Part shown: piece after piece, positions 5,114-33,875 of the stretch
How positions within the stretch are numbered: the first letter of the stretch is position 1
Layout: each line of letters begins with the position of its first letter
IMG/VR virus record: IMGVR_UViG_3300027021_000002
Span: 67,572-125,197 of that record
Length of the DNA: 57,626 nt
DNA from: a virus
Reading direction: 5' to 3' (one strand)
Made by a program: the position numbers and the translations under genes
Notes under the pieces: generated by a model
Database searches by the model: none
The model's input: the letters and a program-made list of their open reading frames with translations, nothing else
Told to the model about the DNA's origin: nothing

Positions 5114-5272
5114 AGTGGGGTCGCGGAATAGGTAGACGCTATCGTGGGCGTAGCCCAAGGACGATATGGAGAGAACCAGGCAAGCGGCATAGCTCCGTTC
5201 AAACTCGCTAGGCACAAACGGTCCGTTGTGCCCCTGTAGGGTGACATAACCAACAAATCCCTACCCCCACTA
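5114..5272 (+). ncRNA. tRNA-like RNA A (T-loop insertion, enlarged anticodon and variable regions)
   Basis: Acceptor AGTGGGG/CCCCACT; D arm GCG-GAATAGGTAGA-CGC; T stem GTAGGG-TGAC..AAAT-CCCTAC. Confidence 0.75.
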
Positions 5273-5277
5273 TCTTT

Positions 5278-5417
5278 GGTGACGTAGCAGATCACATTAC
5301 GTGGTAACATCATTTCAGATGTCGAACCTCCTGCGTCACCCGCGAAAGTCTTCGGGCGGAGTATGTTTCTAAACATCATGGATGGCAGAGTTCCAGTCCA
5401 TACTAACCCCTCCGCCC
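5278..5417 (+). ncRNA. two candidate structured RNAs
   Basis: Closing stems GGTGACGTAG/CTGCGTCACC (5278-5340) and GGGCGGAG/CTCCGCCC (5354-5417). Confidence 0.45.
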
Positions 5418-5453
5418 TCTTAAAATCTAAATTTATTAAACGGAGAAAATATT

Positions 5454-5681
5454 ATGATTGTTGAAGAAAAGAAAACCTTCATTTGTGAAGTATGTAGATC
5501 AAGAAGTGACACCGCTCAGGAAGCTAAAGAATGTGAGGAAAGTCACGCAAAAATAGTTAATATAGACGAGACAGAATATTGGATGGGCCACGTTACACCA
5601 CATGCTATTTTTATCAAATTTCAGTTACCAAATGGAGAAACATTATCTAAGAGATTTATCGACGAAATGGAATGTGATTAA
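5454..5681 (+). CDS. hypothetical zinc-finger protein
   Basis: CEVC...CEESH; similar to 37208..37471. Confidence 0.7.
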   Translation: MIVEEKKTFICEVCRSRSDTAQEAKECEESHAKIVNIDETEYWMGHVTPHAIFIKFQLPNGETLSKRFIDEMECD

Positions 5682-5720
5682 TGAATCTGTACTTTCATTT
5701 ATTTCAGTTAGGAGTTTAAC

Positions 5721-6032
5721 ATGAATATTATCTATATAGATCACGGAAACGGTAAGGATTTTATTTTTCGTGTGTCAGATGAAATGGTTAAGCATGTCCA
5801 CAAGGGGGATACAGTTGTGACAGAAACTATGTATGGTATTGCAACGGGTGTTTGTAAAACGGATGTGGTCAAAATTCACAACGACGATGCGGTTTATTTT
5901 GCTCGAACGCATGGCGCATATCTACCCTTTAAACATATAATCGGAAAGCTATATCCTGAGTTAGAAGGTATAGTTATACGCAACATGCTCGATAGGCTTA
6001 TGAAATCAAAGAATGACGATTTACCATTCTAA
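5721..6032 (+). CDS. hypothetical protein
   Basis: AGGAG SD; ends in DDLPF. Confidence 0.7.
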   Translation: MNIIYIDHGNGKDFIFRVSDEMVKHVHKGDTVVTETMYGIATGVCKTDVVKIHNDDAVYFARTHGAYLPFKHIIGKLYPELEGIVIRNMLDRLMKSKNDDLPF

Positions 6033-6050
6033 ACAGGAGGAATAAAAAAA

Positions 6051-6302
6051 ATGAAGCCTTATAAATGTCCTGTATGTAACGGAACTGGAAAAGTCCCAAA
6101 TGGATTCTATAGTAATATTGGTGGAAAATATGGCGTTAGTACAAGTACAGAGCCGGAAGGCTGTAGGGCATGTAATTGTACTGGGGTTATTTGGGGACCA
6201 GATTCATTATGTGCGGAGAGTGATTTAGAAATATCGTGGCAAGGTGGACCACCACACGCCATTTATACTTGGCCCACCCCAGAACTACCTAATGGTAAAT
6301 AG
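6051..6302 (+). CDS. DnaJ-type zinc-finger protein
   Basis: CPVCNGTG and CRACNCTG. Confidence 0.7.
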   Translation: MKPYKCPVCNGTGKVPNGFYSNIGGKYGVSTSTEPEGCRACNCTGVIWGPDSLCAESDLEISWQGGPPHAIYTWPTPELPNGK

Positions 6303-6341
6303 ATAAATACAATATTTTAAGCAATAGAAAGGAGAGTTAAA

Positions 6342-6779
6342 ATGGCTGAAGATACTAAGCGTATAGTAGAAATTAATGGTGTAAAGATAGAGGTAGACCT
6401 TGCGACAGCAAAGCGTGTTGATGAGTTTCGTGTTGGGGATAATGTGAAGGTATTGCGCAAACGGTACAGCAATGAGTATGAGATACTTCCTGGTGTGATA
6501 GTAGAGCTTGTCAACTTTCAAAAGCTACCTACTATGGTGATCGCGGTGTTCTCTTCTGATTATAGCAAAGCGGATGTTACATTCATTAATTATAACGCAG
6601 AAACAAAGGATATTGAAATTGCCCCTTGTGGAGAGCATGAAATAATTCTTGAAAAGTCTGGCGTTATGGACAAATTCAATTACCAAATCGAAAAGGCACA
6701 GACTGAGTTACAAGAATTAATTAACAAACGTGATTATTTTGAAAAGCATTTTTCTAAGTATTTTGTAAAGGAAAATTAA
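6342..6779 (+). CDS. hypothetical phage protein
   Basis: AAAGGAG SD; FRVGDNV module and coiled-coil tail. Confidence 0.75.
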   Translation: MAEDTKRIVEINGVKIEVDLATAKRVDEFRVGDNVKVLRKRYSNEYEILPGVIVELVNFQKLPTMVIAVFSSDYSKADVTFINYNAETKDIEIAPCGEHEIILEKSGVMDKFNYQIEKAQTELQELINKRDYFEKHFSKYFVKEN

Positions 6780-6780
6780 A

Positions 6781-7037
6781 ATGGATCTTTCTAAAATTTC
6801 TACTGATGATTTATTGGAAGAATTGTTAACACGAGATGATAGCAATATACACGAAGTTGATCTCTATCCGAACATGATTATGGTGGATATCAAGATGGAT
6901 ATACAACGAAAATGATTGATGGCCCTGGCAGGGTATTCTATCTTGCAAATGGTCAGCGACATTGTATATACAATGCAGATCCTGTATTTAGCGAAAACGG
7001 ACATTGTATATTCTGTGGTGAGAAGTCAAAGCAATAA
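6781..7037 (+). pseudogene. frameshifted small gene (or sequencing indel)
   Basis: MDLSKISTDDLLEELL... continues in another frame near 6870 as EHDYGG...IDGPGRVF...CIFCGEKSKQ*, ending at a palindrome. Confidence 0.5.
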
Positions 7038-7086
7038 AAAGAAGAATTCATCTAATACAACAAAAGTTTAACAAAGGAATGGTTAT

Positions 7087-7425
7087 GTGGAGTTAGCATC
7101 GGAGGAATGGTGTGATGTTGAGGGATTTGAAGGATATAAGATAAGCACACATGGCAGAGTTAAGTCAAGACATAGAACCCTGAAGCCATATAAGGACGGA
7201 CGCGGATACCTAAGAGTGGATCTTGGTAGAGGAAACAGGCGTAAAGTACATAGACTAGTAGCTCAACACTTCATTGAAAATCCAAAGGATCACCCAATAG
7301 TAAATCACATAGATGGAAATCGTCATAATAACTCAGTTAATAATTTAGAATGGGTTACTGATTCCGGAAATTTAAAACATGCGTGGAAACGCGGGTCTTA
7401 TAAGAATAGGAGAAAGAAGAATTGA
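7087..7425 (+). CDS. NUMOD4/HNH homing endonuclease
   Basis: EEWCDVEGFEGYKISTHGRVKS (NUMOD4); HRLVA..F, VNHIDGNRHNN...NLEW (HNH). Confidence 0.9.
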   Translation: MELASEEWCDVEGFEGYKISTHGRVKSRHRTLKPYKDGRGYLRVDLGRGNRRKVHRLVAQHFIENPKDHPIVNHIDGNRHNNSVNNLEWVTDSGNLKHAWKRGSYKNRRKKN

Positions 7426-7426
7426 G

Positions 7427-7759
7427 ATGAAAAATCTTGAACTTGAGGTTTATAAAATAGGCAAATATAGTGTTTGCGTTAAATGTACCCATATAGCAGA
7501 TCATCTAAGGGGTAGCTTGAACATGGAGGACGAAGATACCGGGTGGGAAATTACATCTGATGACAACCCTGGTCTTTCTGAGTGGGAGTTGAATGTGTGC
7601 GGTTCATTACAAAAATATGATGATGATGAAGTGTGTCATACTTTTGATACTCCTGGAGAACGAGACGATTTTATAAATGCAATAAAAAGATTATTGGTGA
7701 AAATAAACAGCGAGTGTACTGTCGATAATTCCGTATTACAGCTTGAACGTGTTATTTAA
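7427..7759 (+). CDS. hypothetical protein
   Basis: AGGAG upstream of ATG 7427. Confidence 0.65.
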   Translation: MKNLELEVYKIGKYSVCVKCTHIADHLRGSLNMEDEDTGWEITSDDNPGLSEWELNVCGSLQKYDDDEVCHTFDTPGERDDFINAIKRLLVKINSECTVDNSVLQLERVI

Positions 7760-7780
7760 ATAAATAGAATTTTCATTCAC

Positions 7781-7900
7781 GATGGGGCTGCACGAGCGGC
7801 GATGTGTTGCGTAGTAATACGTAGACAATAATGGATAGGTGATATTAGAGTGCTCCACCTTAAAGTTGCTGTCTTGTAGGTTCGAATCCTACCCCCGTTT
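7781..7900 (+). ncRNA. D-armless tRNA-like RNA
   Basis: Acceptor GATGGGG/CCCCGTT; perfect T arm GTAGG-TTCGAAT-CCTAC; no D arm; two internal hairpins. Confidence 0.65.
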
Positions 7901-7906
7901 CTATTT

Positions 7907-7982
7907 GCTTCGGTAGCTCAGTCGGTAGAGCGCAGGACTGAAAATTCTGGCGTCAGTGGTTCAACTCCGCTCCGAAGCACCA
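7907..7982 (+). tRNA. tRNA-Phe (GAA)
   Basis: Cloverleaf, CAGGA-CTGAAAA-TTCTG, encoded CCA. Confidence 0.95.
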
Positions 7983-8124
7983 AAACCGTAGAGGATAGAA
8001 CAGGCAGCTATCGCGCCATGCGTAATACTAGGCCACCCCGTGACTCAGCACCGGACTGACGAGGGAATCAGCCCAAGCCTCTGGTCTTCAAAGAGATGTG
8101 GGAATGTCGCCCCACCTACGGTTT
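7983..8124 (+). ncRNA. structured RNA between the two tRNAs
   Basis: AAACCGTAG/CTACGGTTT closing stem with an abutting T-arm-like GTGGG..CCCAC hairpin. Confidence 0.55.
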
Positions 8125-8129
8125 CTTAT

Positions 8130-8203
8130 GGCTCCTTCGTTCAATGGTAGGACGCAACGCTTTCAATGTTGTAATATGGGTTCGATCCCCGTAGGAGCTA
8201 CCA
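8130..8203 (+). tRNA. tRNA-Glu (TTC)
   Basis: GGCTCCT/AGGAGCT; CAACG-CTTTCAA-TGTTG; CCA end. Confidence 0.92.
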
Positions 8204-8378
8204 GACGGGATGACTGGAATAGGTATACATGGATCGAGGTGCCGAGCGTCACGGTTGCAAACGTGTACCTTATAGCAACGCTCATGTAGGGTGACTATAC
8301 GAGTAACAATGTGTGAGTCTTTAATCTAAACGGCGGACTTTGACCGCGCCGCCTCTCGTCAAATCCCTACTCCCGTCA
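8204..8378 (+). ncRNA. tRNA-like RNA B (about 65-nt insertion in the T-loop)
   Basis: GACGGGA/TCCCGTC; GGAATAGGTATAC D-loop; GTAGGG-TGAC...GTC-AAAT-CCCTAC; starts immediately after the tRNA-Glu CCA. Confidence 0.75.
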
Positions 8379-8380
8379 TT

Positions 8381-8444
8381 AATGAAATAGGGTGCTCAAC
8401 GCCTGGAAAGCGCAGTGGTTTGGACAACTCAGCCCTATTTCATT
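8381..8444 (+). ncRNA. candidate structured RNA
   Basis: Perfect 12-bp closing stem AATGAAATAGGG/CCCTATTTCATT. Confidence 0.45.
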
Positions 8445-8455
8445 TGCCTTCATCT

Positions 8456-8523
8456 CCCGGTATCACATAGATTCATAAAACACCTCCTTTCTTACCTGTG
8501 CCCGGTGCCGGGTCGGGTGCAGG
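8456..8523 (+). ncRNA. anti-SD/anti-AUG-containing RNA, possible pseudoknot
   Basis: CATAAAACACCTCCTTTCT followed by a GC hairpin whose loop can pair with upstream CCCGGTAT. Confidence 0.5.
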
Positions 8524-8545
8524 ATTCAATTAATTGGGAGCACAT

Positions 8546-8725
8546 ATGGATAAGGATTATAAGCGATTAACTATAGCAAAAATACACAACGAAATGTTTC
8601 TTGGGCTATGTAAAGGTTTGCCTAGATATTGCGTAGATGATGACGGGCTAGCTTATTACGAAACGCCACAAGAACACGAAGAAAGACTTGAACGGAGTAG
8701 ACAGAATGAGAACAGCACCTTGTAA
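8546..8725 (+). CDS. hypothetical protein
   Basis: GGGAG SD before ATG 8546. Confidence 0.55.
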   Translation: MDKDYKRLTIAKIHNEMFLGLCKGLPRYCVDDDGLAYYETPQEHEERLERSRQNENSTL

Positions 8726-8876
8726 GGACTGTACAAATCGTATATTGGGTTGTCATTCAACATGTGAGAAGTATCAAGAATATGCAGCCCATCAAGCAAA
8801 GACTAACAATAATAGATTTCTTGATCATCTCAAAGATGAATATTTCAAAGAAAAATACAGAAAGGGGAAGCGTTAG
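8706..8876 (+). CDS. small Cys-rich phage protein
   Basis: PCKDC..R..GCHSTCEKY. Confidence 0.7.
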   Translation: MRTAPCKDCTNRILGCHSTCEKYQEYAAHQAKTNNNRFLDHLKDEYFKEKYRKGKR

Positions 8877-9169
8877 TGAGACGATGGTGGTGCGCACGTA
8901 TTATATTCCCGTTGCCAAAGAACTTTTCCGGTAACGATATAGACGCAGCAATTCTATGGCTCCAAACTTATCAAGCAAAATTAGAAGCAAGAAAACTCGA
9001 AGGCGAATATCCACAACGATTCAAGGTTAAGTGGTGGGAGAGGTTGTTGTTTGCTCGTAGTTTCGCTGGACCAATGAGACGCATTAAGAAGGGTATTAAC
9101 CCGAATGGTGAATGTTACTTTGCCGTAAGACCCGTAAGGGAACTAAAGGATATGGCATGGGTGGATTGA
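8876..9169 (+). CDS. hypothetical protein
   Basis: Translationally coupled ORF. Confidence 0.6.
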   Translation: MRRWWCARIIFPLPKNFSGNDIDAAILWLQTYQAKLEARKLEGEYPQRFKVKWWERLLFARSFAGPMRRIKKGINPNGECYFAVRPVRELKDMAWVD

Positions 9170-9177
9170 GGTGAGTT

Positions 9178-9363
9178 ATGAAACAGGTATGTGTAAGGTG
9201 GTTTGATGGTTATTTGGAATCCTTCGACGTGAACGAAGTAAGATTTGGAGCATATCTCTTATGGATGAGGTTGAATGACGGAGCAAATCGGCATATCCCA
9301 TTAAGTCAAGTCAGATGGTTTTCGGTTAATCCAGAATCACACGAAAATACAGAACAGAATTAA
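9178..9363 (+). CDS. hypothetical protein
   Basis: GAGGTG SD. Confidence 0.65.
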   Translation: MKQVCVRWFDGYLESFDVNEVRFGAYLLWMRLNDGANRHIPLSQVRWFSVNPESHENTEQN

Positions 9364-9422
9364 AACACAGTTTCATTTAAAACCTAACACACTAAAAATT
9401 AAATAAACAGGAGGAATATTAA

Positions 9423-10451
9423 TTGGGTTTTCAGAGGGCAACTAGACAAGACATATGGCTGAAGGTAGCCATATCAGGTGTAAGTGGTAGCGGCAAGACA
9501 TGGGGACTCCTTGAACTTGCAAGTGGTGTAGCAAAGAAATTACGTGAAGAACAGAAGCTTGGCGCAGATGATCCAGGCGGACGTATTGCGTTTATTGATA
9601 CCGAAAATGGTCGTGGTAAGTATTACGCAGACAAATTTGATTATGATTATATGGCGTTATTTGCCCCTTATACGCCAGAAAGTTATGTTTCCGCTATAGA
9701 CGAAGCTTTGCGTGCTGGATATAAGACTATTGTAATCGATAGCACTTCCCACGAGTGGTCTGGTGAAGGTGGATGTCTCGAAATCCATTCCAAAATTCCT
9801 GGTAATTCTTACACAGCGTGGCAGTCCGTAACTCCTCGACACAGGGCGTTTATAGAAAAGATTATCTCTTCTCCTGCTCACATTTTTGCGTCTGTCCGGT
9901 CTAAAGACGAGTACGTAATCGAGGAAGTCAACGGTAAGAAGGTTCCTAAGAAGGTTGGGGTAGGTGTTGACCAGCGTGGTCAGTTTGAATACGAGTATAC
10001 CGTTACCTTTGAGGTGGACAGGGATCGCCACATTGCATCTGCTGGTAAGGATAACACGAATATTTTCGACCAGTGGAACGAGATGCTGAAATCTTCTCAC
10101 GGAGAGATGCTTTACGACTGGGCGAATAGCGGAAGCGGTAAAAACATGAAAGTGCGTGATGTAGAGCCTAAAATTGAAAAGCCGAAAAAGGAAGAGGCTC
10201 CTACCAACTCTGTTGATAATGACCCTGTTGATTTAGTGAAGCTAATCAGTGATATTGATACACTGGCTCACGAGGTTGCTAAAATAGACGACCAGCACAA
10301 GAAAGATGTGTTAGAAGTGTGCAAGGAATGCTACGCAAACAACAAGGGCAACTACAAAAAACTGGCTGAAGATAGTAGCTTGACTGACGACCAAAAGGCC
10401 GAAGTTGCTGTTGCTATGCACGCCAAACTTAAAGCATTAAAGGAGAACTAA
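9423..10451 (+). CDS. Sak4-like (AAA_24) recombination ATPase
   Basis: GVSGSGKT, IDTENG, IVIDSTSHEW; adjacent to SSB. Confidence 0.85.
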   Translation: MGFQRATRQDIWLKVAISGVSGSGKTWGLLELASGVAKKLREEQKLGADDPGGRIAFIDTENGRGKYYADKFDYDYMALFAPYTPESYVSAIDEALRAGYKTIVIDSTSHEWSGEGGCLEIHSKIPGNSYTAWQSVTPRHRAFIEKIISSPAHIFASVRSKDEYVIEEVNGKKVPKKVGVGVDQRGQFEYEYTVTFEVDRDRHIASAGKDNTNIFDQWNEMLKSSHGEMLYDWANSGSGKNMKVRDVEPKIEKPKKEEAPTNSVDNDPVDLVKLISDIDTLAHEVAKIDDQHKKDVLEVCKECYANNKGNYKKLAEDSSLTDDQKAEVAVAMHAKLKALKEN

Positions 10452-10452
10452 T

Positions 10453-10824
10453 ATGAGTGTTGAGAACAAGTGGCATTTTGTAGGTAATATTGCGAGTGAT
10501 ATTGAGAAGCGGGAGACATCCGGTGGAACCACTGTTGTTAGTTTCCGGTTAGCAACCCGTCGTGCCTTTCCTCGTGAGGATGGCCCCCAAGCGGACTTTC
10601 GTCCGATGGTGGCGTGGGGTAAAACAGCAGAGTTTATAGCCAAGTGGTTTGAAAAGGGAAGTCGTATTATTGGCTGTGGGCGTATCGAGGATCGCTCTTG
10701 GGATGGACAGGACGGACAGAAGCATTTCATTACCGAGTGTCAGATCGACGAAGTGACTTTTGGAGGATCTAAGCAAAGCGGCAATACAAGCTCTAGCGGT
10801 TCTGGGGAAGAGTTGTTCGGATAA
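10453..10824 (+). CDS. ssb: single-stranded DNA-binding protein
   Basis: OB-fold SSB motifs VAWGKTAE, KGSRI..GRI; acidic tail. Confidence 0.9.
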   Translation: MSVENKWHFVGNIASDIEKRETSGGTTVVSFRLATRRAFPREDGPQADFRPMVAWGKTAEFIAKWFEKGSRIIGCGRIEDRSWDGQDGQKHFITECQIDEVTFGGSKQSGNTSSSGSGEELFG

Positions 10825-11186
10825 TGAAGTGTCGTTATACCCGTTGTCCTCATGGTGGAGAAGTGGATCGAGAAGAAGCAGTTCAGGATGGTCAAAAATA
10901 TTACCATCCTGACTGTAAACAAAAGGTAGATGCTCGAAAAGCAATCGTAGACGTGATACACGAAATTAATCCAAATATCGTATATGCGGAGCTTGGCAAG
11001 GTATTAAACAAACTGCTGTACGAAAGAGAATTAGGATTTGAATTTATGCTACGTGCAGTAAAGTATGCAAAGTATGCTGGAATTAATATCTATCGCGGAG
11101 CCACACTTTATAACCTTGTCAATAATCCAAATTTTCTAAAGTACAACGACAAATATAAGGCAAAACACGGAGAGGATAATATTTAA
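10824..11186 (+). CDS. Zn-binding replication-associated protein (possible helicase loader)
   Basis: CxxxxC...YHxxC; lies directly before the helicase as in SPbeta-like phages. Confidence 0.55.
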   Translation: MKCRYTRCPHGGEVDREEAVQDGQKYYHPDCKQKVDARKAIVDVIHEINPNIVYAELGKVLNKLLYERELGFEFMLRAVKYAKYAGINIYRGATLYNLVNNPNFLKYNDKYKAKHGEDNI

Positions 11187-12577
11187 TGCCCCAAGACCTC
11201 AAAAAACGGCTGGCTGAAGTAACTGATGTTAGGGCAGAGGGCAGCATTTTGGGGACATTACTAGGAGATTTATCAAGCATAGTTCATTGTGAACTGCTGA
11301 AGCCGGAACACTTTTCAGATCCAATTAACCAATGTATATATCAGGCCATATGGGACATCTACGAACAAGGCGTCAAACAGATCAATGAGATGACGCTGTA
11401 TACACAGCTTAATAGCTACAAAGATGTCCCCAAACTACTCGAACGATTGACATTAGACTACGTTAAAGAATATCGAGAGAAATACATGATGGTTGGTCTT
11501 AGTGATCCGACTCAGCTACAATTCCAAGTAAACCGAGTGATGTCCCTTGCATTCAAGCGCGATTTATTTCTGTCAATTACAAAATTTGAAGATGTCGCGC
11601 TTGACCCTTCTAAAGATAACGTGGTGGAGATCACGAACCTTATTACTTGCGACGTAGATCGCTTAAATGAAAAGTATATTTTATCTGAGAACGCGGAGAC
11701 CTTCGATGACCGCTATAAGGATCTGTGGCAAAACATATTGGCGAAAAGAAATGAGGACGGGACATACGGTATCCCTTCAAAGTATGACGTAATCAACGAC
11801 TACTTTACCTATGAGCCAGGAGAATTATATGTAGTAGTAGCGCGGATGAAACATGGGAAAAGCGCATTTTGTCTCAACGAACTTATAGATAAACTGGATA
11901 AGGGATACCCGTGCCTGTACCTCGACACAGAGAACACAGAGGAGAAGTTTTTCATACGCCTGTTGGCCCACAAAGCAAATGTAGATCAACGCTTGATTAA
12001 AAGTGGAAACTACGATTCAAGATGTGAGCCGTATATACAACGGGCAATGAGGTGGATTGAAGAAAAGGGTAAACTTCTATGTTACCGATACGACCCAGCA
12101 TGGACACCGGACAAGATATATACCGTGTGCAAAACTATGAAGCACAAGATAAACTTTCAGTTTATGGTATATGACTACATGAAAGACACCGAGAGTGCAG
12201 CGATGGGTGAGCAGTACAATCGGTTAGGCAATCTGTGTAACTTCCTCAAAAACAACATTGCTGGCAAGTTCCACGTTCCCGTATTGTCTGCCGCTCAAGA
12301 GGGCAGGGGTAATCAGGGTAAGAATCCTAGTCAAATGCACATCGCGGATTCGGACAAGATAGCTCGATACCTTACGGTTGCAATGCATTGGAGAAGGAAG
12401 ACACCGGAAGAGGTAGATACTGACGGGACTAATTGCGGGAACTATTGCTTGTCGATCCCGATTAGCCGTGATTCAAACATGACCGCAGATGATGAATATT
12501 TGGATTTTGATTTCCACGGCAGCACAATGCGTATTGAAGAGGCACAGTCACATGACCCACTAGGCTTATTCGATTAA
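11186..12577 (+). CDS. dnaB: DnaB-like replicative helicase
   Basis: Walker A ARMKHGKS, YDYMK, SAAQ, IADSDKI. Confidence 0.9.
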   Translation: MPQDLKKRLAEVTDVRAEGSILGTLLGDLSSIVHCELLKPEHFSDPINQCIYQAIWDIYEQGVKQINEMTLYTQLNSYKDVPKLLERLTLDYVKEYREKYMMVGLSDPTQLQFQVNRVMSLAFKRDLFLSITKFEDVALDPSKDNVVEITNLITCDVDRLNEKYILSENAETFDDRYKDLWQNILAKRNEDGTYGIPSKYDVINDYFTYEPGELYVVVARMKHGKSAFCLNELIDKLDKGYPCLYLDTENTEEKFFIRLLAHKANVDQRLIKSGNYDSRCEPYIQRAMRWIEEKGKLLCYRYDPAWTPDKIYTVCKTMKHKINFQFMVYDYMKDTESAAMGEQYNRLGNLCNFLKNNIAGKFHVPVLSAAQEGRGNQGKNPSQMHIADSDKIARYLTVAMHWRRKTPEEVDTDGTNCGNYCLSIPISRDSNMTADDEYLDFDFHGSTMRIEEAQSHDPLGLFD

Positions 12578-12594
12578 GAAAAGGATTAACATAA

Positions 12595-14373: not shown

Positions 14374-14409
14374 ACCTAATATTCAATACTTATTAGATTG
14401 AGGGCTAAT

Positions 14410-22675: not shown

Positions 22676-22719
22676 GGAAACACAGTAAGGGATTAATTAT
22701 TTTGCACGGGGGTAAACGT

Positions 22720-23277: not shown

Positions 23278-23300
23278 GAAATTAATAAACGGAGGGAAAG

Positions 23301-24005: not shown

Positions 24006-24034
24006 ATAAAAGAGGTATTTTAAGTAAGGTATAT

Positions 24035-24110
24035 AGGGGAATAGCTCAATTGGCAGAGCGCGTGTGCTGGGAACACGAGTGTGTGGGTTCAAGTCCTACT
24101 TCCCCTACCA
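24035..24110 (+). tRNA. tRNA-Pro (TGG), atypical
   Basis: AGGGGAA/TTCCCCT, D and T arms, CCA; anticodon loop GCTGGGA. Confidence 0.8.
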
Positions 24111-24130
24111 AATAGAAAGGAGGACGGTAT

Positions 24131-26176: not shown

Positions 26177-26191
26177 AAAGGAGAAAAGAAA

Positions 26192-26578: not shown

Positions 26579-26585
26579 GAGGCAT

Positions 26586-26606
26586 GAGGGGAGCAACCCT
26601 CCCCTC
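26586..26606 (+). terminator. GC hairpin, probable terminator
   Basis: GAGGGGAG-CAACC-CTCCCCTC; weak U tract. Confidence 0.5.
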
Positions 26607-26637
26607 TATTCTCCTTATTGAAAGGAATATTTTAATT

Positions 26638-27192
26638 ATGATACACGACGGGAAGGAATACGTAGAGGTTGAATTCTATGGTGGACAAACCATTGAACAA
26701 GCTGTAAGGTGGTTACTTGAATATAAAGAAAAGGGCGTTTTGGCCTGTGGGGTGTTTAATACTGTAACTCTGTATTCCGACACGGTGACACTTGACTCTG
26801 CTTACAAAGAAATTACAGGTAAGTCAAAAGTAGAAGTTGACGCAGATCATCGCCGTTGGATAGAAGATGCAAAAAGGGCAGAAGAAGAACATAAAAAAGC
26901 TATTCCAGCATTGACAAAAATATGGAGACATAAGGGTAGAGAAGTTTTGGCAGAAGATAAATGGGATAAGTGGGATGAAATTGTTCCCATTCGATTAAAC
27001 GATTTGTACCATGGAATGGAGCTTGGAAATTGCCTTGATGTAGTAAAAATATTGAACAACGGAGGATCTTTTGACGAGGCTGAAGAGACACTTGCTAATC
27101 AGGGACATTCCGGCATGTCGTATAGCTTAGTATGTTCAATGGTAATGGAGTTTTGTGACAGAGGGAAAGATTTTTTCGAATACGTTAATTAG
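26638..27192 (+). CDS. hypothetical phage protein
   Basis: ATG 26638 right after a palindrome; QGHSGMS motif. Confidence 0.7.
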   Translation: MIHDGKEYVEVEFYGGQTIEQAVRWLLEYKEKGVLACGVFNTVTLYSDTVTLDSAYKEITGKSKVEVDADHRRWIEDAKRAEEEHKKAIPALTKIWRHKGREVLAEDKWDKWDEIVPIRLNDLYHGMELGNCLDVVKILNNGGSFDEAEETLANQGHSGMSYSLVCSMVMEFCDRGKDFFEYVN

Positions 27193-27226
27193 ATAAAACA
27201 ATTATTTTAAGTAAGGAGATTCGTTT

Positions 27227-27409
27227 ATGCAAATATGTCCAGAATGCCGTGGTGCGAAAAGGGTAATTTGTTTCGGGAAAGAAACCACGTGTGCGTCATG
27301 TAGTGGCACGGGTGAAGTACCAGATGGGTTTGATCCAATCAAGGCCAGTATCTACCATGAAGTAAATAGGCGTATGAGGCTAGAGAGCGAAGGGCTGTGG
27401 GATAGGTAA
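27227..27409 (+). CDS. DnaJ-type zinc-finger protein
   Basis: CPECRG, CASCSGTG. Confidence 0.65.
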   Translation: MQICPECRGAKRVICFGKETTCASCSGTGEVPDGFDPIKASIYHEVNRRMRLESEGLWDR

Positions 27410-27410
27410 T

Positions 27411-27626
27411 ATGAAAGCAATCACAATCGAAGAAGCAACCACAAACTTTAAATATAAGCAAGAGCACCGCCGCGCCTTTCAGAATCTATTCTATCAGAGG
27501 TTAGATGGTGGCGTGATTCCGAAGATGGATCTCGACGCGCTCATGGAGGGGCAAAAAGAGGATAAATCATTGTATGCGCTGGCGTGCAAAAACTTGATCA
27601 AAAAGTATAAAGAATTAAACAATTAA
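27411..27626 (+). CDS. hypothetical protein
   Basis: 71-aa ORF within the operon. Confidence 0.6.
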   Translation: MKAITIEEATTNFKYKQEHRRAFQNLFYQRLDGGVIPKMDLDALMEGQKEDKSLYALACKNLIKKYKELNN

Positions 27627-27647
27627 ATTTATAAATTGGAGTAGTTT

Positions 27648-27878
27648 ATGAAAAGTAATATGCAGGGAGCCACCGAAGAGTATCGTCATATGTACGAAGC
27701 ACTTAATGAATTTGATAAGTATTTATTTAGTATCGGATGGGGACTTGACGACGCTCCATATCATGGATGGCATGGTGATCCGCTAAAAAATGAATGTGAG
27801 ATATATAAAAATATATCACAAAAATATGAAGAGTTAAAAATTGTTTTAGAAGAAGCATTAGATATAACGGGGAAGTAA
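27648..27878 (+). CDS. hypothetical protein
   Basis: GGAG SD. Confidence 0.6.
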   Translation: MKSNMQGATEEYRHMYEALNEFDKYLFSIGWGLDDAPYHGWHGDPLKNECEIYKNISQKYEELKIVLEEALDITGK

Positions 27879-27884
27879 TTTAGT

Positions 27885-28205
27885 ATGAGACCAATAGATG
27901 CTGACGCACTAACACAAGATATTCTATCACTAACCGTTCTATACGACAATGAGTATTACAAAGGTAGAGCAGACGAGCGTAATGATATACTGCAACGCAT
28001 TCAAAGTGAACCGACCGTTGAAAAGTGCGGCAAAATTGTTTGGTTCGAAGAAAGAGTATGCGGAAATCCGCTTGATGGCTACGAGTATAACTGGGGATGG
28101 CAGTGTAGTGAATGCGAATATGTTTTTGATGACGAGTATGATGACCCGGACTGTTCCCCAGACGTGAAATATTGTCCAGACTGTGGAGCGAAGATACTAA
28201 AATAA
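27885..28205 (+). CDS. phage zinc-ribbon protein
   Basis: MRPIDADAL...CSEC...YCPDCGA. Confidence 0.75.
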   Translation: MRPIDADALTQDILSLTVLYDNEYYKGRADERNDILQRIQSEPTVEKCGKIVWFEERVCGNPLDGYEYNWGWQCSECEYVFDDEYDDPDCSPDVKYCPDCGAKILK

Positions 28206-28235
28206 AAGGCGCATTTTAATTAAGGAGGAATGACG

Positions 28236-28382
28236 ATGACAGAAAGATGTTCTATTTGTGGTCATTGGATGGAAGAACGCATGCAATATGGAGAACCATT
28301 ATCCATATGGTACAAATGCGTAAACCCAGAATGCCCAAATGGAAAAGAAACAAAGATAACCTACGGCACATCGACTAATTAG
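28236..28382 (+). CDS. small zinc-ribbon protein (48 aa)
   Basis: Hand translation CSICG..CVNPEC; lies between palindromes at 28203 and 28388. Confidence 0.6.
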   Translation: MTERCSICGHWMEERMQYGEPLSIWYKCVNPECPNGKETKITYGTSTN

Positions 28383-28424
28383 ATAAATGAAAAGAAACTT
28401 TTAATAAAGAGAAAGGAGGATAAT

Positions 28425-29429
28425 ATGTCTATTTGTAAATTTTGTGGAGAAGACGATGGGAGTACCTTTTATACGTGTAATGCTTGCGGAAAAAAGTTTT
28501 GCCATACATGTTTTAAAAAATATGATCGTCAACAATGGTTATGCCCAGACTGCATCAAAAAGCACAACCCAAGTCTATGGCGCGAAAAGAATGGAATTCC
28601 AAAGAGGGGAGGTGAGGGAATGAAGTACAAGGTTGGCGATAGGGTACAAGTAAAAAGCCTTGAAGAACTTGAAGAGTATGACAATGGCGATAATGAATAT
28701 ACCATATACGAAAATATGAAAGAGTTTGCTGAACAAATCGTTACCATCGAAGCTATTGATCCATATGGTAATGGAGATAAAGACTACCATATCGAAGAAG
28801 ATGATGGCGAAGATTACTGGACCGATGATATGTTTTCGGGACTTGCAAGCGAATGCAAAACTCCAAAATCTCACAAATTTAAAATAGGTGATATTGTACA
28901 CGGCGTAAAAGGTGCTCCATACACTTTCACAGATGAAGATATGAAACAAGGGCAAGTTATTGCTGTATACGATGTAGATTGCGACGATGAAGATGATATT
29001 AGGGTAAAGATCTTAGAACATTCAAACAATTTTCGAGTTGGTGATGAATGGAAGGTTAATAGTAAGTATTTCAAACTCGTCGAGCCAACAGAAAAAGAAA
29101 AACCAATTAACCCATGGGACACGTTGTTCAAACGAGAATATCCATCAATATGGGGAGGCTTAGATGCAACAATATCGGCTACTCCAACGTGGATATCATT
29201 CGGGGACACATGGGGAGCAGATAGAACCACTCGCAACCCCGGAGACCGTGTGCGCCTAAAGGACGCCGAATTGCTAACTAATATCCTCAACGAATCTCCC
29301 TGGGCAGACAGAGGTATTCTGCAAAGGGCTGGGCAAGTTGTTACTATTGCTGGACCACATAGTCTTAACAAGACGTGGTACAAAATAAAGGAAGACACAA
29401 ATACTTATTCAGAAGAAATGTTTAATTAG
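28425..29429 (+). CDS. Zn finger plus SH3/KOW-like module protein
   Basis: Cys-rich N-terminus, KYKVGDRV, KFKIGDIV; internal SD+ATG at 28620. Confidence 0.7.
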   Translation: MSICKFCGEDDGSTFYTCNACGKKFCHTCFKKYDRQQWLCPDCIKKHNPSLWREKNGIPKRGGEGMKYKVGDRVQVKSLEELEEYDNGDNEYTIYENMKEFAEQIVTIEAIDPYGNGDKDYHIEEDDGEDYWTDDMFSGLASECKTPKSHKFKIGDIVHGVKGAPYTFTDEDMKQGQVIAVYDVDCDDEDDIRVKILEHSNNFRVGDEWKVNSKYFKLVEPTEKEKPINPWDTLFKREYPSIWGGLDATISATPTWISFGDTWGADRTTRNPGDRVRLKDAELLTNILNESPWADRGILQRAGQVVTIAGPHSLNKTWYKIKEDTNTYSEEMFN

Positions 29430-29443
29430 AAAGGAGGAGAAAG

Positions 29444-30262
29444 ATGAAGTTTCAAGTAGGAGATATTGTATGCGGCACATCTGACGAATATGGATATACA
29501 AATACGCATATGACCAGAGGTGAAGTGACGGGGATAAGAGAAGACGGGAAAGTCTATATAAAAATTTTAGAACATACTTATGGGCACTGTGTAGGTGACG
29601 CGTTCCCGGTTGATCCAGATGATTTTAAATTGATTAAAGAAATAAAGAAAGGAGATGTAAAAATGACTAAGAATGCACGGAAGGTAAAGAAAGATTTTGA
29701 AGCAAAAATCGAGGAGATGGAGCAGGACTTTAAGAATCAGATGAAGTCCAAGGACGAAGAGATTGAGGAACTTCAGGAGAAGCTTACGAAGAAGGACCGT
29801 GAGTTTGCCAAGAAGGATGCAAAGAAACAGTACGACCACGAGATGGAGATCGAAAACATTAAGTTGTCGAACGCTCGTGAAATGAGCGAGAAAGACATCG
29901 ACCACACCGAAGAACTTACCGAGCAGAAAGAGACCATTATTGGCCTCAAGGCAGAGAATGAGCGTCTTGAAAGCACCGTTAAAGCCTTGAAGAAGCTTGG
30001 TGTGTCCGAAGAGATCCTAGCTGAGAATAGCACCTTGAAGGCCCAGGTAAGCGGACTTGAGTACACCGTGAAGCACATTACTGATTTGCTTGATGAGTGC
30101 CGTTCTGAGAAGGACTTCGATAAGGTATATGGTCTTATTAAACAGGCTCAGGAATATGCTGATGAGCGTACACAGAAGATTATGGATTCCGTATCTAAGA
30201 TGATTCCCGACATGCCGGAAATAAAGGTTGTGAGTCAAGTTGTTACACCGGAGGAAGACTAA
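29444..30262 (+). CDS. SH3-like module plus coiled-coil protein
   Basis: MKFQVGDIV followed by a long heptad region. Confidence 0.7.
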   Translation: MKFQVGDIVCGTSDEYGYTNTHMTRGEVTGIREDGKVYIKILEHTYGHCVGDAFPVDPDDFKLIKEIKKGDVKMTKNARKVKKDFEAKIEEMEQDFKNQMKSKDEEIEELQEKLTKKDREFAKKDAKKQYDHEMEIENIKLSNAREMSEKDIDHTEELTEQKETIIGLKAENERLESTVKALKKLGVSEEILAENSTLKAQVSGLEYTVKHITDLLDECRSEKDFDKVYGLIKQAQEYADERTQKIMDSVSKMIPDMPEIKVVSQVVTPEED

Positions 30263-30277
30263 AAGTTTAATTACCAA

Positions 30278-30316
30278 GTGGTTGGCATATGGAAAAGTTG
30301 TCTGTGTGCCAACCAC
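30278..30316. other. intergenic hairpin
   Basis: GTGGTTGGCATA...TGTGCCAACCAC. Confidence 0.5.
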
Positions 30317-30340
30317 AATATCCTTAAATAAGGAGTAACT

Positions 30341-30709
30341 ATGAAAGATATAAAACTCCACCCCAAGAGTGAGAAATTAATCAAAGAAACTTTTGGCTGG
30401 TATACACAAGTAGGTCAGCCAATTGAAAAGATCAACGGTCGATGTGTGATACATATGTATCCAACCGAAGATACTTATGACGAAAACGGAGAGTTAGTCG
30501 GATATAGAGATGCATTATTCTTCAACGTTCATGTTTATGATGCCGAAAATAGGATCTGCTATATCAGAAATAGAGCTGACGCCATCACGACGGGTGATGT
30601 AGGCGTAACGGTTAAATACTTTAAAGACGGTAGTACTATGCTTGTTATGGACGGAAATATTGACATTATATACGGACAAGCAATTTGTATACACAAAGAA
30701 TTGAAATAG
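30341..30709 (+). CDS. hypothetical protein
   Basis: AAGGAG SD. Confidence 0.7.
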   Translation: MKDIKLHPKSEKLIKETFGWYTQVGQPIEKINGRCVIHMYPTEDTYDENGELVGYRDALFFNVHVYDAENRICYIRNRADAITTGDVGVTVKYFKDGSTMLVMDGNIDIIYGQAICIHKELK

Positions 30710-30732
30710 GAATTTTATGTAAGGAGTAAATT

Positions 30733-31257
30733 ATGATTGTTTTTATGTCATTGATAACACTAATGATTGTTGTTAATGCGTGGTGGAATTTGACCCCAAT
30801 TGATTGGTCAAGATATAGCAATGAACGCATTAAGGGTATTTTTATATTAATATTTTTATTTCTTGGATTAGTAGGATTTTTCGTTTTCCCATTTGTATAT
30901 CAATATGATGACACGACACAATTAGTTGTTACGTCTGAGGCTCCAATTTATTCCGTAGTTGATAATACTAGCGTTTCCGGTGGTTTCTTTCTTGGGTGTG
31001 GTTATACTGGGTCAGACCTTAATTACTACTACATTACTAAAGATGAATTCGGAGAAAATGTAAATAAAGTATCAGCAACTAGCACCTCTATCAAAACAAT
31101 AGATGGTGATCCAAGAATTGTCCAATACGAATATCAGCACACCAAAAAGGGACAGGGATGGTTTGTAATAAGGGCTTGGTTCCCACTCAAAAAGCGTACT
31201 GTGCTTGAAGTTCCCGAAGACACTATCAAATACGATTATAATATTGATCTTCAATAG
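30733..31257 (+). CDS. membrane protein
   Basis: Two N-terminal TM segments; GGFFLGCG. Confidence 0.7.
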   Translation: MIVFMSLITLMIVVNAWWNLTPIDWSRYSNERIKGIFILIFLFLGLVGFFVFPFVYQYDDTTQLVVTSEAPIYSVVDNTSVSGGFFLGCGYTGSDLNYYYITKDEFGENVNKVSATSTSIKTIDGDPRIVQYEYQHTKKGQGWFVIRAWFPLKKRTVLEVPEDTIKYDYNIDLQ

Positions 31258-31271
31258 GGAGGAAATTAATA

Positions 31272-31496
31272 ATGCCTTGTAATTGTCAGAGCGAAATGAA
31301 GAAAAAGTTTAAAGAGAAACTATATCCCAACGCAACCTCAATCGATGGTCAGTATGAAATATTATCTGGACGCGCCTATATGAATTACACAGTACACGAA
31401 GAGGGTAAAAAGAAGCCTGTCGAGGTTCCCGTTTTATTGAGTTATTGTCCGCATTGCGGAGAACCTTATGATACTTCAAAGCCGGAGACAGAATAG
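31272..31496 (+). CDS. small Zn-binding protein (MxCxC...YCPxCG type; resembles Tad1-like proteins only in this motif)
   Basis: MPCNC...YCPHCG. Confidence 0.6.
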   Translation: MPCNCQSEMKKKFKEKLYPNATSIDGQYEILSGRAYMNYTVHEEGKKKPVEVPVLLSYCPHCGEPYDTSKPETE

Positions 31497-31879
31497 TGTC
31501 TGACACAAAAAAATCATTTAAATACACCTATACTCGTCCTAGTCTTGACTGGTTCGAATATGTTGATGTTGAAATAAAACCTGACGACTATTACTACTTT
31601 AAACTTAATCGCAGATTTGGCCCGTCTTGGTGGCTTATTGGGACAAACCCAGTTGACGAACCAACATACCATTGGAAAGAAACAGAAATAGGGAAAATAA
31701 ACGAAGAAGACCTGGTACGATTTATTAAGTGGGCAGAAACCGATATAGGTAATAAGATAACCTCAATAGATATGATCTGCGGCTCATTCAACGTGTTTGA
31801 AGAAACAGAAAAAATTCTGAAACCATTACGTAAAAGTGGATGGGCACCACAAAAATACACCGAAGAATTATTTAAATAA
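31496..31879 (+). CDS. hypothetical protein
   Basis: Coupled GTG start. Confidence 0.65.
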   Translation: MSDTKKSFKYTYTRPSLDWFEYVDVEIKPDDYYYFKLNRRFGPSWWLIGTNPVDEPTYHWKETEIGKINEEDLVRFIKWAETDIGNKITSIDMICGSFNVFEETEKILKPLRKSGWAPQKYTEELFK

Positions 31880-31911
31880 AAAGAACAATTTAATAAAGGA
31901 GGATTAGTAAT

Positions 31912-32076
31912 ATGGTAGACATTGAGGATATGAAATCATGTATACAGGAATGGATGGCACAGGGGCCAAGTGCCGTTTGCCTCGCAAAAACGTATGCTGA
32001 AATCAGAACAGAATTAGATAAACAACTTGAATTTTGTATGACTGTATTTACAGAACCGGAGTACGACGAATCATGA
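31912..32076 (+). CDS. hypothetical protein (54 aa)
   Basis: Hand translation; AAAGGAGG SD. Confidence 0.55.
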   Translation: MVDIEDMKSCIQEWMAQGPSAVCLAKTYAEIRTELDKQLEFCMTVFTEPEYDES

Positions 32077-32231
32077 AGTTTGTGGTGGTGGTGCTGGCAC
32101 TAATTGCCTTCGTGCTTGTAGCGATTGGATTTGTAACTGTAAATACAAAGGTTAGTAAATGGTTTTTGTATTCTGGACTATTCTTGTCTGTTGTGACCAT
32201 GTTTGCTCTCGCAGCACTAAATTTCGTATAA
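32073..32231 (+). CDS. small membrane protein
   Basis: ATGA overlap; two hydrophobic segments. Confidence 0.6.
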   Translation: MKFVVVVLALIAFVLVAIGFVTVNTKVSKWFLYSGLFLSVVTMFALAALNFV

Positions 32232-32241
32232 GGAGACAATT

Positions 32242-32424
32242 ATGAAACACAGGACTGACAAAAGGGGTAAATGGTATAGAACCATGTGTCTCGAATGCAA
32301 TCTACGCTGTTGCAGGTCGATGAAATCTCGATTTCAATCATGGTGGGAGATGTGGAAGTATTTTAGAGAGTGCAAGAGTGACCAAGTAACTTTTGATAAG
32401 TTGAAGAAAGAGAGTATGAAATGA
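32242..32424 (+). CDS. hypothetical protein
   Basis: AAGGAG SD. Confidence 0.55.
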   Translation: MKHRTDKRGKWYRTMCLECNLRCCRSMKSRFQSWWEMWKYFRECKSDQVTFDKLKKESMK

Positions 32425-32738
32425 GCGGTGGTTATAGGGTAGTGACATTGTGCGGGAGTACGAGATTCAAAGACGCATTTGAACGAGCACAAAAGGAATT
32501 AACCTTACAGGGGTACATTGTTATTTCGGTTGGACTATTTGGACATGCCGATCAGGAATACGAAAAACGGATTACGGATGATGTAAAAATTATGTTAGAT
32601 GACATGCATAAGCGGAAAATAGATATGTCTGATGAGATATATGTAATTAATGTCGAAGGATATATTGGCGAAAGCACGGCTTCGGAGATCGCATATGCAA
32701 ATACAACAAACAAAATGGTTAGATATTTAGAATATTGA
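32421..32738 (+). CDS. NDT/DUF4406-like Rossmannoid protein
   Basis: TLCGS.RF...HKRKIDMSD.IYVIN..GYIGEST..EI.YA. Confidence 0.65.
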   Translation: MSGGYRVVTLCGSTRFKDAFERAQKELTLQGYIVISVGLFGHADQEYEKRITDDVKIMLDDMHKRKIDMSDEIYVINVEGYIGESTASEIAYANTTNKMVRYLEY

Positions 32739-32767
32739 AATGGCAATTTCAAGAAAGGAGAAAATCT

Positions 32768-33169
32768 ATGAGTTTAAAAGAAAAGTATTTAAAGAACTAC
32801 AGAATTGTTGAAACTAGAGAAGGAAATTTTTATTTAGTCGTACGCGATGCTGACTGTCCCTTTCGCGACGGAGGAGTGGATTTACTTTCTGGAGTAAACA
32901 ATGGTGCTGGATTTATGCTAATTGAGAGCTTTTCTGATGATCTTACTACACCAGACTTCTGTTATGAAAAAAGTAGATATGATATTATTGCGGTTTATAA
33001 AATCATTAACAATTTAATACATAAAATATTTAATGATAATGGCGAAATTGACAAATCTCAATTATCATTGATATGGAGACGCGAACCATCTCGCAAAACC
33101 ATGACCGTATCTCAAATTGAAAAAGAACTTGGTTATCCAATTGAGATCATCAGTGAAGAAGATGTTTGA
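32768..33169 (+). CDS. hypothetical phage protein
   Basis: YDIIAVY...LIWRRE...MTVSQIEKELGY. Confidence 0.7.
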   Translation: MSLKEKYLKNYRIVETREGNFYLVVRDADCPFRDGGVDLLSGVNNGAGFMLIESFSDDLTTPDFCYEKSRYDIIAVYKIINNLIHKIFNDNGEIDKSQLSLIWRREPSRKTMTVSQIEKELGYPIEIISEEDV

Positions 33170-33289
33170 ACTTATCTTTGTAGCTATCATTATGGGAACA
33201 CAAATCATATTTGCTTGTGCAGGACTATCGTTAATAATCGCTTTATTATATGGCGAAATTAAATTACTAAAAACAGAAAGGAATTAATT

Positions 33290-33640
33290 ATGCAGGTACT
33301 TGACATTGTAACTTTTCAGGACGCAGCAACCGCTACTGGTTACGGAACAGCACATGCTGTTGGATCAGCAAATCAGGTAGCAATCTATGTAACACGGACG
33401 GGAGACGCCTCTACGAGCACAGTAAATTTCGCTGGCAAAGATGTAGACGGTAATTGGTATGCGGTTTATGCAACCCTTCAGGTTGACGGAAGTAAAGCAA
33501 CGTCTACAGAAGGTAAAGACGAGTGTTGGATTATTGACACAACACCTTGGGTTGAGATCCGTACTGGTATTAGTGCAATCTCTGAGGGAGAAGACGACTC
33601 CGTGACCGTTAAGGGTAGGTTTGTAAATACGGCAGCTTAA
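33290..33640 (+). CDS. Thr/Ala-rich beta-sandwich protein
   Basis: Alternating beta pattern, DVDGNWY. Confidence 0.6.
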   Translation: MQVLDIVTFQDAATATGYGTAHAVGSANQVAIYVTRTGDASTSTVNFAGKDVDGNWYAVYATLQVDGSKATSTEGKDECWIIDTTPWVEIRTGISAISEGEDDSVTVKGRFVNTAA

Positions 33641-33663
33641 GTTAAAATGCTTCTTTCATCTAA

Positions 33664-33875
33664 GGGCGGGTCGGGGAATAGGTAGACCCTAGGCAACACA
33701 GATATGGGAATAGCCGTTTCATTTCCCAACCGAACGCATCAGCAGATGTGAAGTGATACCCGGAAGCCTTCGGCAAAGGTATGCGGTATAGAGGGAGCCT
33801 AGCAATGCCACGAGGCCACGGTGCGTCTTGTGTGGTGACTTTACGGGTTAGCCTGTCAAATCCACACCCCGCCCA
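33664..33875 (+). ncRNA. tRNA-like RNA C (about 100-nt anticodon insertion, T-loop insertion)
   Basis: GGGCGGG/CCCGCCC; GGG-GAATAGGTAGA-CCC; TAGGC/GCCTA; GTGTGG-TGAC..GTC-AAAT-CCACAC. Confidence 0.8.

Follow-up and report, generated by a model that had tools for sequence, protein, structure and literature searches.

A family of phage non-coding RNA genes, in which a body resembling tRNA-Leu carries one or two folded and exchangeable modules, is represented three times in the window analysed here, a 57,626-nucleotide stretch of IMG/VR virus record IMGVR_UViG_3300027021_000002 (positions 67,572 to 125,197). Comparison with other members confirms the three elements as genuine non-coding RNA genes, the host genome being judged that of a temperate Firmicutes-like phage. 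The family is large and, apparently, undescribed to date, as at least 422 unique members were recovered (all family counts being lower bounds), including at least 226 with an insert in the T-loop and at least 196 with a plain UGCAAAU loop. The latter form is present, unannotated, in the phages SPP1, phi3T, SBSphiJ and LP65, and the hosts span the Bacillota, Actinomycetota and Alphaproteobacteria. The architecture, a 7/6 tRNA-Leu body plus one or two folded modules, is unlike that of any natural RNA family found, and what is new here is the exchangeability of the inserts. As to function, the best guess, which stops somewhat short of being probable, is that a stabilising tRNA chassis displays RNA modules directed against host defences.

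The preliminary description of this DNA had identified three plus-strand elements sharing a 7-bp acceptor, a D-loop and a T arm, and their positions, strand and common core all hold (Table 1). Each core comprises a 7-bp acceptor, a Leu-type D arm, A15:U48, U54/A58 and an unusual 6-bp T stem; pairing in that stem had been recognized, albeit as 5 bp (GTAGG/CCTAC, GTGTG/CACAC) instead of 6 bp (GTAGGG/CCCTAC, GTGTGG/CCACAC). The T-loop of every copy is indeed interrupted, with inserts between U54-G55 and CAAAU of 10, 66 and 19 nt in place of the earlier estimate of about 8 to 65 nt, and the middle domains are indeed unrelated, although they measure 96, 55 and 140 nt and not up to about 100 nt. The copies have neither an anticodon arm, with its 7-nt loop, nor an encoded CCA, as first described, and all three have A73 as discriminator.

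Table 1. Positions and parts of the three elements and of adjoining features in the window
Feature	Position	Strand	Remarks
Copy A	5114..5272	+	acceptor 5114-5120/5265-5271, D arm 5121-5139
Copy A middle module	5140-5235	+	96 nt, three hairpins
Copy A T arm	T stem 5236-5241/5259-5264, T insert 5244-5253 (10 nt)	+	
Copy A 3' end	discriminator A5272	+	no encoded CCA
Copy B	8204..8378	+	first base directly 3' of tRNA-Glu CCA
Copy B D arm (degenerate)	8211-8230	+	
Copy B middle module	8231-8285	+	55 nt, possible pseudoknot (read by eye)
Copy B T arm	T stem 8286-8291/8365-8370, T insert 8294-8359 (66 nt), consensus CGAG/CUCG helix	+	
Copy B discriminator	A8378	+	
Copy C	33664..33875	+	D stem GGG/CCC
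Copy C middle module	33690-33829	+	140 nt, multibranch
Copy C T arm	T stem 33830-33835/33862-33867	+	
Copy C T insert	33838-33856	+	19 nt: linker + 4-bp hairpin
Copy C discriminator	A33875	+	
tRNA-Glu(UUC)	8130..8203	+	CCA encoded; zero spacer to copy B
Gene-junction palindrome	5094..5111	+	2 nt 5' of copy A
Gene-junction palindrome	33643..33660	+	3 nt 5' of copy C; kept in sister phages L695, L696
Putative sigma-A-type promoter	4809..4837	+	11/12 near-consensus, extended -10, upstream of copy A; consensus match only

Because long unalignable inserts suit a covariance model poorly, the family was searched by descriptors, blind anchor tests and weight matrices. When matches were chosen on T-insert words alone, a fully paired 6-bp T stem was present in 96 of 103, and a search on pairing only reached the Leu D arm in 73 of 103; when they were chosen on the T arm, the D arm was present in 109 of 113. 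By these sequence comparisons, the blind searches confirm the predicted fold. Across 12 aligned members, 95 % of cells are paired and both sides have changed in 12 of 16 pairs, and the RNA strand is marked by an excess of G-U over A-C mismatches, both in unselected T-stem pairs (25:5) and in extension stems (105:33). The blind sets, the covariation and the G-U bias thus agree with the original view of a selected fold as opposed to decayed tRNAs. A position-weight scan trained without the window members scored copy A at 85 and copy C at 66, and had zero passing matches in six shuffled genomes and the reversed genome. Copy B, whose D arm has one additional nucleotide and whose D stem is degenerate, is for that reason absent from both the weight-scan and the descriptor matches; nevertheless, with 7/7 acceptor and 6/6 T-stem pairs, exact family words in its T insert and a D-loop variant that recurs in seven other members, it is by sequence clearly a family member. 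Minimum-energy folding recovers the drawn structure for copy A only, copies B and C adopting it at a cost of about 5 kcal/mol, so that the support comes from cross-family comparison and not from folding energy.

The nearest relative of the scaffold is class II tRNA-Leu of bacteria and phages (RF00005), with which it shares the 7-bp acceptor, U8, a 3-bp D stem, a Leu-type loop, A15:U48 and U54/A58/C56; an 18-nt D-arm word of the family matched 120 genome sites, 110 of which are tRNA-Leu genes. In contrast to tRNA-Leu, the family has no anticodon arm, a 6-bp T stem, G55, an optional T-loop insert, an unconserved discriminator and almost never an encoded CCA, and the 7/5 stems and 7-nt T-loop of tRNA are replaced by 7/6 stems and, in the window copies, an interrupted loop. 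The top half thus measures 13 bp, and the extra T-stem pair is kept in nearly all members. In the place of the anticodon arm lies a middle domain of 21-232 nt that is unrelated between members.

Such retention of tRNA features makes it conceivable, if somewhat unlikely, that the tRNA body is itself the active part, i.e. a non-translating mimic of tRNA-Leu that absorbs tRNA-binding defence nucleases, sensors or LeuRS, the inserts being tolerated as folded filler. The tRNA-Leu identity set (A15:U48, G18G19, A20a and U54:A58) is retained along with C56; these nucleotides are LeuRS identity elements, and leucylation can proceed without the anticodon and variable arms (PMC9976931). Scaffold sequence is conserved far beyond what pairing needs. 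However, the A73 seen in every window copy occurs in only 55 % of members without an insert and 42 % of those with one, CCA is encoded in only 9 of 382 members among the matches listed, and the 6-bp T stem and G55 also speak against a mimic, as does a covarying module that is kept across unrelated elements and so does not behave as filler. The narrower suggestion, a decoy for anticodon nucleases, is on the whole unlikely for lack of an anticodon loop, although tRNA pieces are present in a few inserts.

The inserts themselves are both diverse and structured. At least 625 inserts fall into at least 567 clusters, and among 29 orthologous pairs sharing both flanks, 14 have unrelated middles. In sister phage L696, the orthologue of copy C keeps the acceptor, T stem and T insert around an unrelated 50-nt middle, and in sister phage L695 another RNA, one that lacks tRNA arms, occupies this site. 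The middle modules reassort independently of the T modules. This clustering, together with the exchange between orthologues and the L696 case, accords with the earlier proposal of a tRNA scaffold displaying variable cargo. Within the modules, pseudoknots are more frequent than in shuffles (33 % vs 15 %), T-arm-like hairpins are in excess (13 vs 1.3 and 8 vs 0.3) and GNRA loops are enriched. One pseudoknotted module is common to phi3T, SBSphiJ/Goe17 and two Bacillus plasmid records, with compensatory changes, and covaries across three unrelated Bacillus elements. The modules thus appear to be under selection for structure, although their folding z-scores are modest (means of -0.5 and -0.8). At the base of the T insert a 4-bp CGAG/CUCG helix covaries; the GAC/GTC closure formerly drawn there did not hold up, as among the 210 members listed the base facing the A of GAC is U in 125 and G in 77. 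A few inserts contain tRNA pieces. No covariation linked the D-loop with the insert linker, and pairing between middle and T modules was at chance level. Modules had no match among Rfam antitoxins, CRISPR repeats or other families, and three modules compared with plasmid or phage records had no match outside the scaffold. A suspected likeness of the copy B module to ToxI was set aside for want of Rfam support.

In the favoured reading, the elements are phage non-coding RNA genes on a chassis derived from tRNA-Leu, whose acceptor, D and T arms form a compact tRNA-like core that closes and protects two insertion sites, one at the anticodon/variable-arm position and one within the T-loop. Each site carries a folded module that is exchanged as a whole from one related phage to another, and recombination between the conserved blocks of the scaffold is the probable route. 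Host enzymes that process tRNA ends probably free the RNA from the transcripts of phage operons; the abutment of copy B on a tRNA CCA, and the location of 12 other members no more than 6 nt from a tRNA or tmRNA among the matches listed, are consistent with this. In members without an insert, pairing of the closing stem stops at 7 bp; in most T-insert members it runs beyond the acceptor (at least six of eight pairs in 59 % vs 7 %), and G18G19 is found in 68/94 (72 %) of insert members vs 100/109 (92 %) of the others. These two traits argue against standard RNase P/Z ends for the T-insert class, most of which may instead be held by the extended closing stem. The element is not a translating tRNA; its modules would most likely be RNA decoys or ligands directed at proteins of host defence or regulation, their diversity being the proposed outcome of arms-race selection. 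Phage RNA antitoxin mimics acting against ToxIN, cited in 10.1101/2022.08.27.505566, offer a precedent. A broader and more tentative idea is that of a natural RNA display platform, with one tRNA-derived chassis supporting aptamer-like RNAs by the hundred, all interchangeable and each neutralising its own, different protein of host defence or regulation; just as tentatively, that platform could be seen as the equivalent, in RNA, of repertoires of anti-defence proteins. Should the modules act against host defences, the family would amount to an extensive catalogue of RNA effectors from phages and to a natural scaffold ready for use in expression; otherwise, it may help to explain the abundance of unexplained structured RNA in phage tRNA regions. 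In either case, its frequency and its presence in the classic phages SPP1 and phi3T open it to immediate testing.

Members are intergenic, lie on the coding strand of their neighbours and frequently occupy the slot preceding terminase where temperate phages keep tRNAs. These features, and the junction of copy B with tRNA-Glu, would suit a cis-acting signal, tRNA-like punctuation for host RNase P/Z cuts in polycistronic phage transcripts with neutrally drifting inserts. That explanation is nonetheless quite improbable, as it accounts for neither the tandem and multi-copy arrays, nor the structured and horizontally shared modules, nor an insert at the very elbow read by RNase P, nor the RNA without tRNA arms at the copy C site of L695. 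Less probable again is a selfish or hitch-hiking non-coding cassette that moves as DNA through conserved blocks acting as recombination sites and brings the phage nothing; presence or absence at orthologous sites, a very patchy distribution and the junction palindrome that copies A and C share with protein genes would fit, but the G-U bias and tRNA tertiary nucleotides imply function at the RNA level, no target duplications were noticed and no recombinase is linked, the commonest neighbour being terminase at 43 of 397 loci among the matches listed. Least credible of all is a new small intron in the T-loop or a set of guide or antisense modules for a phage protein, both raised at the outset: uninterrupted members exist and excision would yield a canonical UUCAAAU or UGCAAAU loop, but no true tRNA was seen to contain the insert, its in silico removal restores no functional tRNA by joining exons as a group I/II or archaeal-type intron would, its length ranges between 1 and 101 nt, it has neither a ribozyme core nor an Rfam intron match on the elements, window inserts match their own genome only at chance level, the two modules are not complementary and no protein is linked at the 397 loci listed.

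Searches for known relatives and partners were likewise negative. Rfam, at gathering and E-value thresholds for the window and 47 family loci, and at E<=10 for copies A and B, matched no element, and ARAGORN found no tRNA in them. An IMG/VR protein search returned no relatives of the window phage, which were reached instead via cluster members. Among the 397 loci listed, no neighbour family (the top ones being terminase, HNH, YopX and DUF722) exceeded 43, and neither DUF3800 nor a CCA-adding enzyme was found in the phage's own record (80 % complete). The literature searched, excluding the supplementary files of Weinberg 2017 and Fremin 2023, contains no description of the family, and 200 of the 408 files of Fremin 2021 contain no match.

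Several known RNAs share individual traits. In the tRNA scaffold that Ponchon and Dardel reportedly engineered in 2007, a foreign folded RNA takes the place of the anticodon arm; the present family differs in being natural, in carrying cargo at a further site, within the T-loop, and in exchanging its cargo between phages. T4 species 1 (band C) and band D are stable non-coding RNAs with tRNA-like ends, encoded in the phage tRNA cluster and of unknown function, and are alike by description only, whereas in the family the Leu D arm is fixed and the modules are exchangeable. YrlA Y RNAs (RF02553) and the tRNA-like domain of tmRNA (RF00023) are also non-decoding, elbow-bearing and phage-carried, whereas the family has unpermuted arms, a real D stem and no Rfam match; neither Ro60 nor another partner was linked at the 397 loci listed, and ARAGORN found no tmRNA tag reading frame. 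Phage pseudo-ToxI mimics and type III antitoxins serve as a functional model for the modules, being phage RNAs that are short and pseudoknotted and that neutralise a host defence; they are, however, tandem repeats, unlike single modules in a tRNA frame with no Rfam antitoxin match and no toxin gene at the 397 loci listed. Allo-tRNAs, selC* tRNAs and tRNA-Sec share a non-canonical top half, at 8/4, 9/3, 8/5 or 9/4 with an anticodon arm as opposed to 7/6 without one; tRNA-Sec likewise has 13 bp there and binds EF-Tu poorly, and some allo-tRNA-like genes are non-translating (PMC7609411). As a minor observation, the palindrome preceding copy A occurs as the same motif at more than 20 gene junctions.

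Copies A, B and C, the three tRNA-shaped elements of the preliminary description, are present where it placed them. Each has a complete acceptor stem (7/7), U8, a tRNA-Leu-type D-loop, U48, a complete T stem (6/6) and U54-G55 followed by an insert and then CAAAU, with A73 and no CCA. ARAGORN, which calls eight tRNAs in the record, calls none of the three, and Rfam, which returns three tRNAs and one skipping-rope RNA for the window, has no match to them even at E<=10. A weight matrix trained on family members other than these copies scores copy A at 85 and copy C at 66, with zero matches in shuffled or reversed genomes; scans miss copy B because its D arm has an extra base and a degenerate stem, and this copy carries the exact T-insert words of the family. 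Folding energy alone backs only copy A, the drawn fold costing about 5 kcal/mol in B and C. Copy B starts at the base right after a tRNA-Glu CCA, and a cut at its first base would be the simplest explanation for this.

The fold of the wider family is under selection, as had been claimed from the three copies, and blind sets, covariation and G-U bias bear this out. Among metagenome matches picked on T-insert words alone, 96/103 have a full 6-bp T stem and a search using pairing only picks out the Leu D arm in 73/103; among those picked on the plain T arm alone, a D arm is present in 109/113. Aligning 12 members gives 95% paired cells and changes on both sides in 12 of 16 pairs, exceeding every shuffle and slid control. 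G-U outnumbers A-C at unselected positions (25:5 and 105:33), which fits an RNA encoded on this strand.

The consensus insert follows U54-G55-A-C with a UAUA linker, a 4-bp CGAG/CUCG helix around a variable module, U or G, and CAAAU. This helix is perfect in 33 of 43 sequence variants against 11 expected, whereas the GAC/GTC closure first proposed fails, G standing opposite the A in 77/210 members. G18G19 is kept in 68/94 insert-bearing members versus 100/109 plain ones, whose UGCAAAU loop is uninterrupted (Fisher p about 3e-4, members not being independent), and the closing stem extends beyond the acceptor in 59% versus 7%. These differences suggest a weakening by the insert of the elbow that RNase P reads, offset by a longer closing stem; copies A, B and C have no such extension.

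The proposal of a tRNA scaffold displaying variable cargo has gained ground, since modules are exchanged both across the family and at copy C. The 625 inserts recovered fall into 567 clusters (lower bounds), middles are unrelated in 14 of 29 pairs with both flanks and acceptor in common, and middle and T modules reassort independently. In the sister contig L696, the copy C orthologue agrees with copy C in acceptor, T stem and T insert, with one change turning an insert-helix G-U into A-U and a compensated D stem; its 50-nt middle is unrelated to that of copy C, aligning no better than shuffles. In sister contig L695 the exact site of copy C is occupied by another stem-closed RNA, about 55 nt long and lacking tRNA arms; a search of the window's genome for its central motif found nothing.

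The modules themselves are under structural selection. Their folding z-scores are modest; H-type pseudoknots are enriched (33% vs 15%, and 12% vs 3%), and T-arm-like hairpins and GNRA loops are also over-represented, a few long middles possibly being mis-parsed tandem copies. One module, common to temperate phi3T, lytic SBSphiJ/Goe phages and two Bacillus plasmid records (one SPbeta-like), lies inside the scaffold every time and shows compensatory changes in two helices crossing a third.

Tentatively, and at somewhat less than even chances, a tRNA-derived chassis is predicted to stabilize and display interchangeable folded RNAs, which would probably act as decoys in phage–host conflict. Its main rival, in which the tRNA body would serve as the decoy in its own right, is unlikely: the family keeps the tertiary identity elements of LeuRS, an enzyme for which the anticodon arm is dispensable (PMC9976931), but conservation does not extend to A73. 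A processing signal fits less well than the chassis and is improbable, and a selfish cassette, also a poorer fit, still more so. Least probable is the intron or guide earlier suggested, given that no real tRNA among the matches listed carries the insert, excision restores none, and window inserts compared with their own genome give no sign of guide or antisense cargo. A translating tRNA was rejected (no anticodon, a 13-bp top half, encoded CCA in only 9/382 members). tRNA mimics are already known as a kind; should the modules turn out to be the effectors, an architecture of exchangeable modules would form a new category.

Pattern searches with the D-loop and T arm find at least 115 viral loci, 82 with the full scaffold, and a genome scan by D-arm word returns mostly tRNA-Leu, plus plain elements. 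All scans pooled, the family has at least 422 unique members, at least 226 with and at least 196 without the insert. The plain form is unannotated in SPP1, phi3T, SPbetaL1, SBSphiJ, Goe17, LP65 and EFDG1, both arms match in phiJL-1, and insert-bearing members occur in proviruses of Nitrobacter, Rhodococcus, Pseudarthrobacter and Streptomyces. The family is not a host core gene, since the T arm is present in only 1/400 other Bacillota genomes. Three variants (L628, L658, L665) seem to have one further insertion, a third, within their D-loop, and similar GC-rich sequence immediately upstream of the SPP1 and SBSphiJ elements is possibly another RNA module.

No partner gene emerged among neighbours within 2.5 kb at 397 loci, the commonest, terminase and HNH genes, each occurring at 43 at most. 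A tRNA lies within 1 kb of 12% of insert-bearing and 28% of plain members, and several loci adjoin ROOL, drum, skipping-rope or tmRNA.

The 100.6-kb record, about 80% complete, encodes DnaB, primase, Pol III alpha, NrdD, a serine recombinase and an amidase, a gene content that suggests a temperate phage whose host is anaerobic and Firmicutes-like; no DUF3800 gene was found in it. A palindrome, TAAAA-N-TTTCAT, marks more than 20 gene junctions of the window (e.g. 5094, 9361, 21333, 33643), also precedes copies A and C, and is kept in the sister phages.

Positions of the RNA elements and nearby features (window coordinates; L-numbers denote sister contigs L695 and L696 or single family loci)
Feature	Position	Remarks
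Copy A	5114-5272 (+)	T insert 10 nt
Copy B	8204-8378 (+)	T insert 66 nt
Copy C	33664-33875 (+)	T insert 19 nt
Stem-closed RNA	5278-5340	Directly after copy A; fold z -4.4; no Rfam match
Stem-closed RNA	5355-5419	Downstream of copy A; fold z -2.4; no Rfam match
Stem-closed RNA	8380-8445	Directly after copy B; fold z -2.7; no Rfam match
Separate tRNA-like RNA	7781-7900	Canonical T arm and a stem resembling an acceptor; D arm and CCA absent; fold z -2.8; YrlA score weak at 25 bits, far under cut-off
Skipping-rope RNA (RF02924)	7984-8123	Directly 3' of tRNA-Phe CCA; 63-nt insert in central hairpin
Resemblance to Firmicutes 16S 3' end (anti-Shine-Dalgarno)	8480-8495	Hairpin follows
Second small stem-closed RNA family	L695:947-1001; L696:1960-2015	In copy C's slot, after XepA-like gene
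GC-rich upstream sequence	L434:1430-1500 (SPP1); L435 upstream of 1499 (SBSphiJ)	
Member with degenerate tRNA-Lys(UUU) in middle module	L650:4903	ARAGORN call
TIR-domain protein gene	L024:6228-7118	Within 2.5 kb of a member; Rhodococcus erythropolis PR4 prophage
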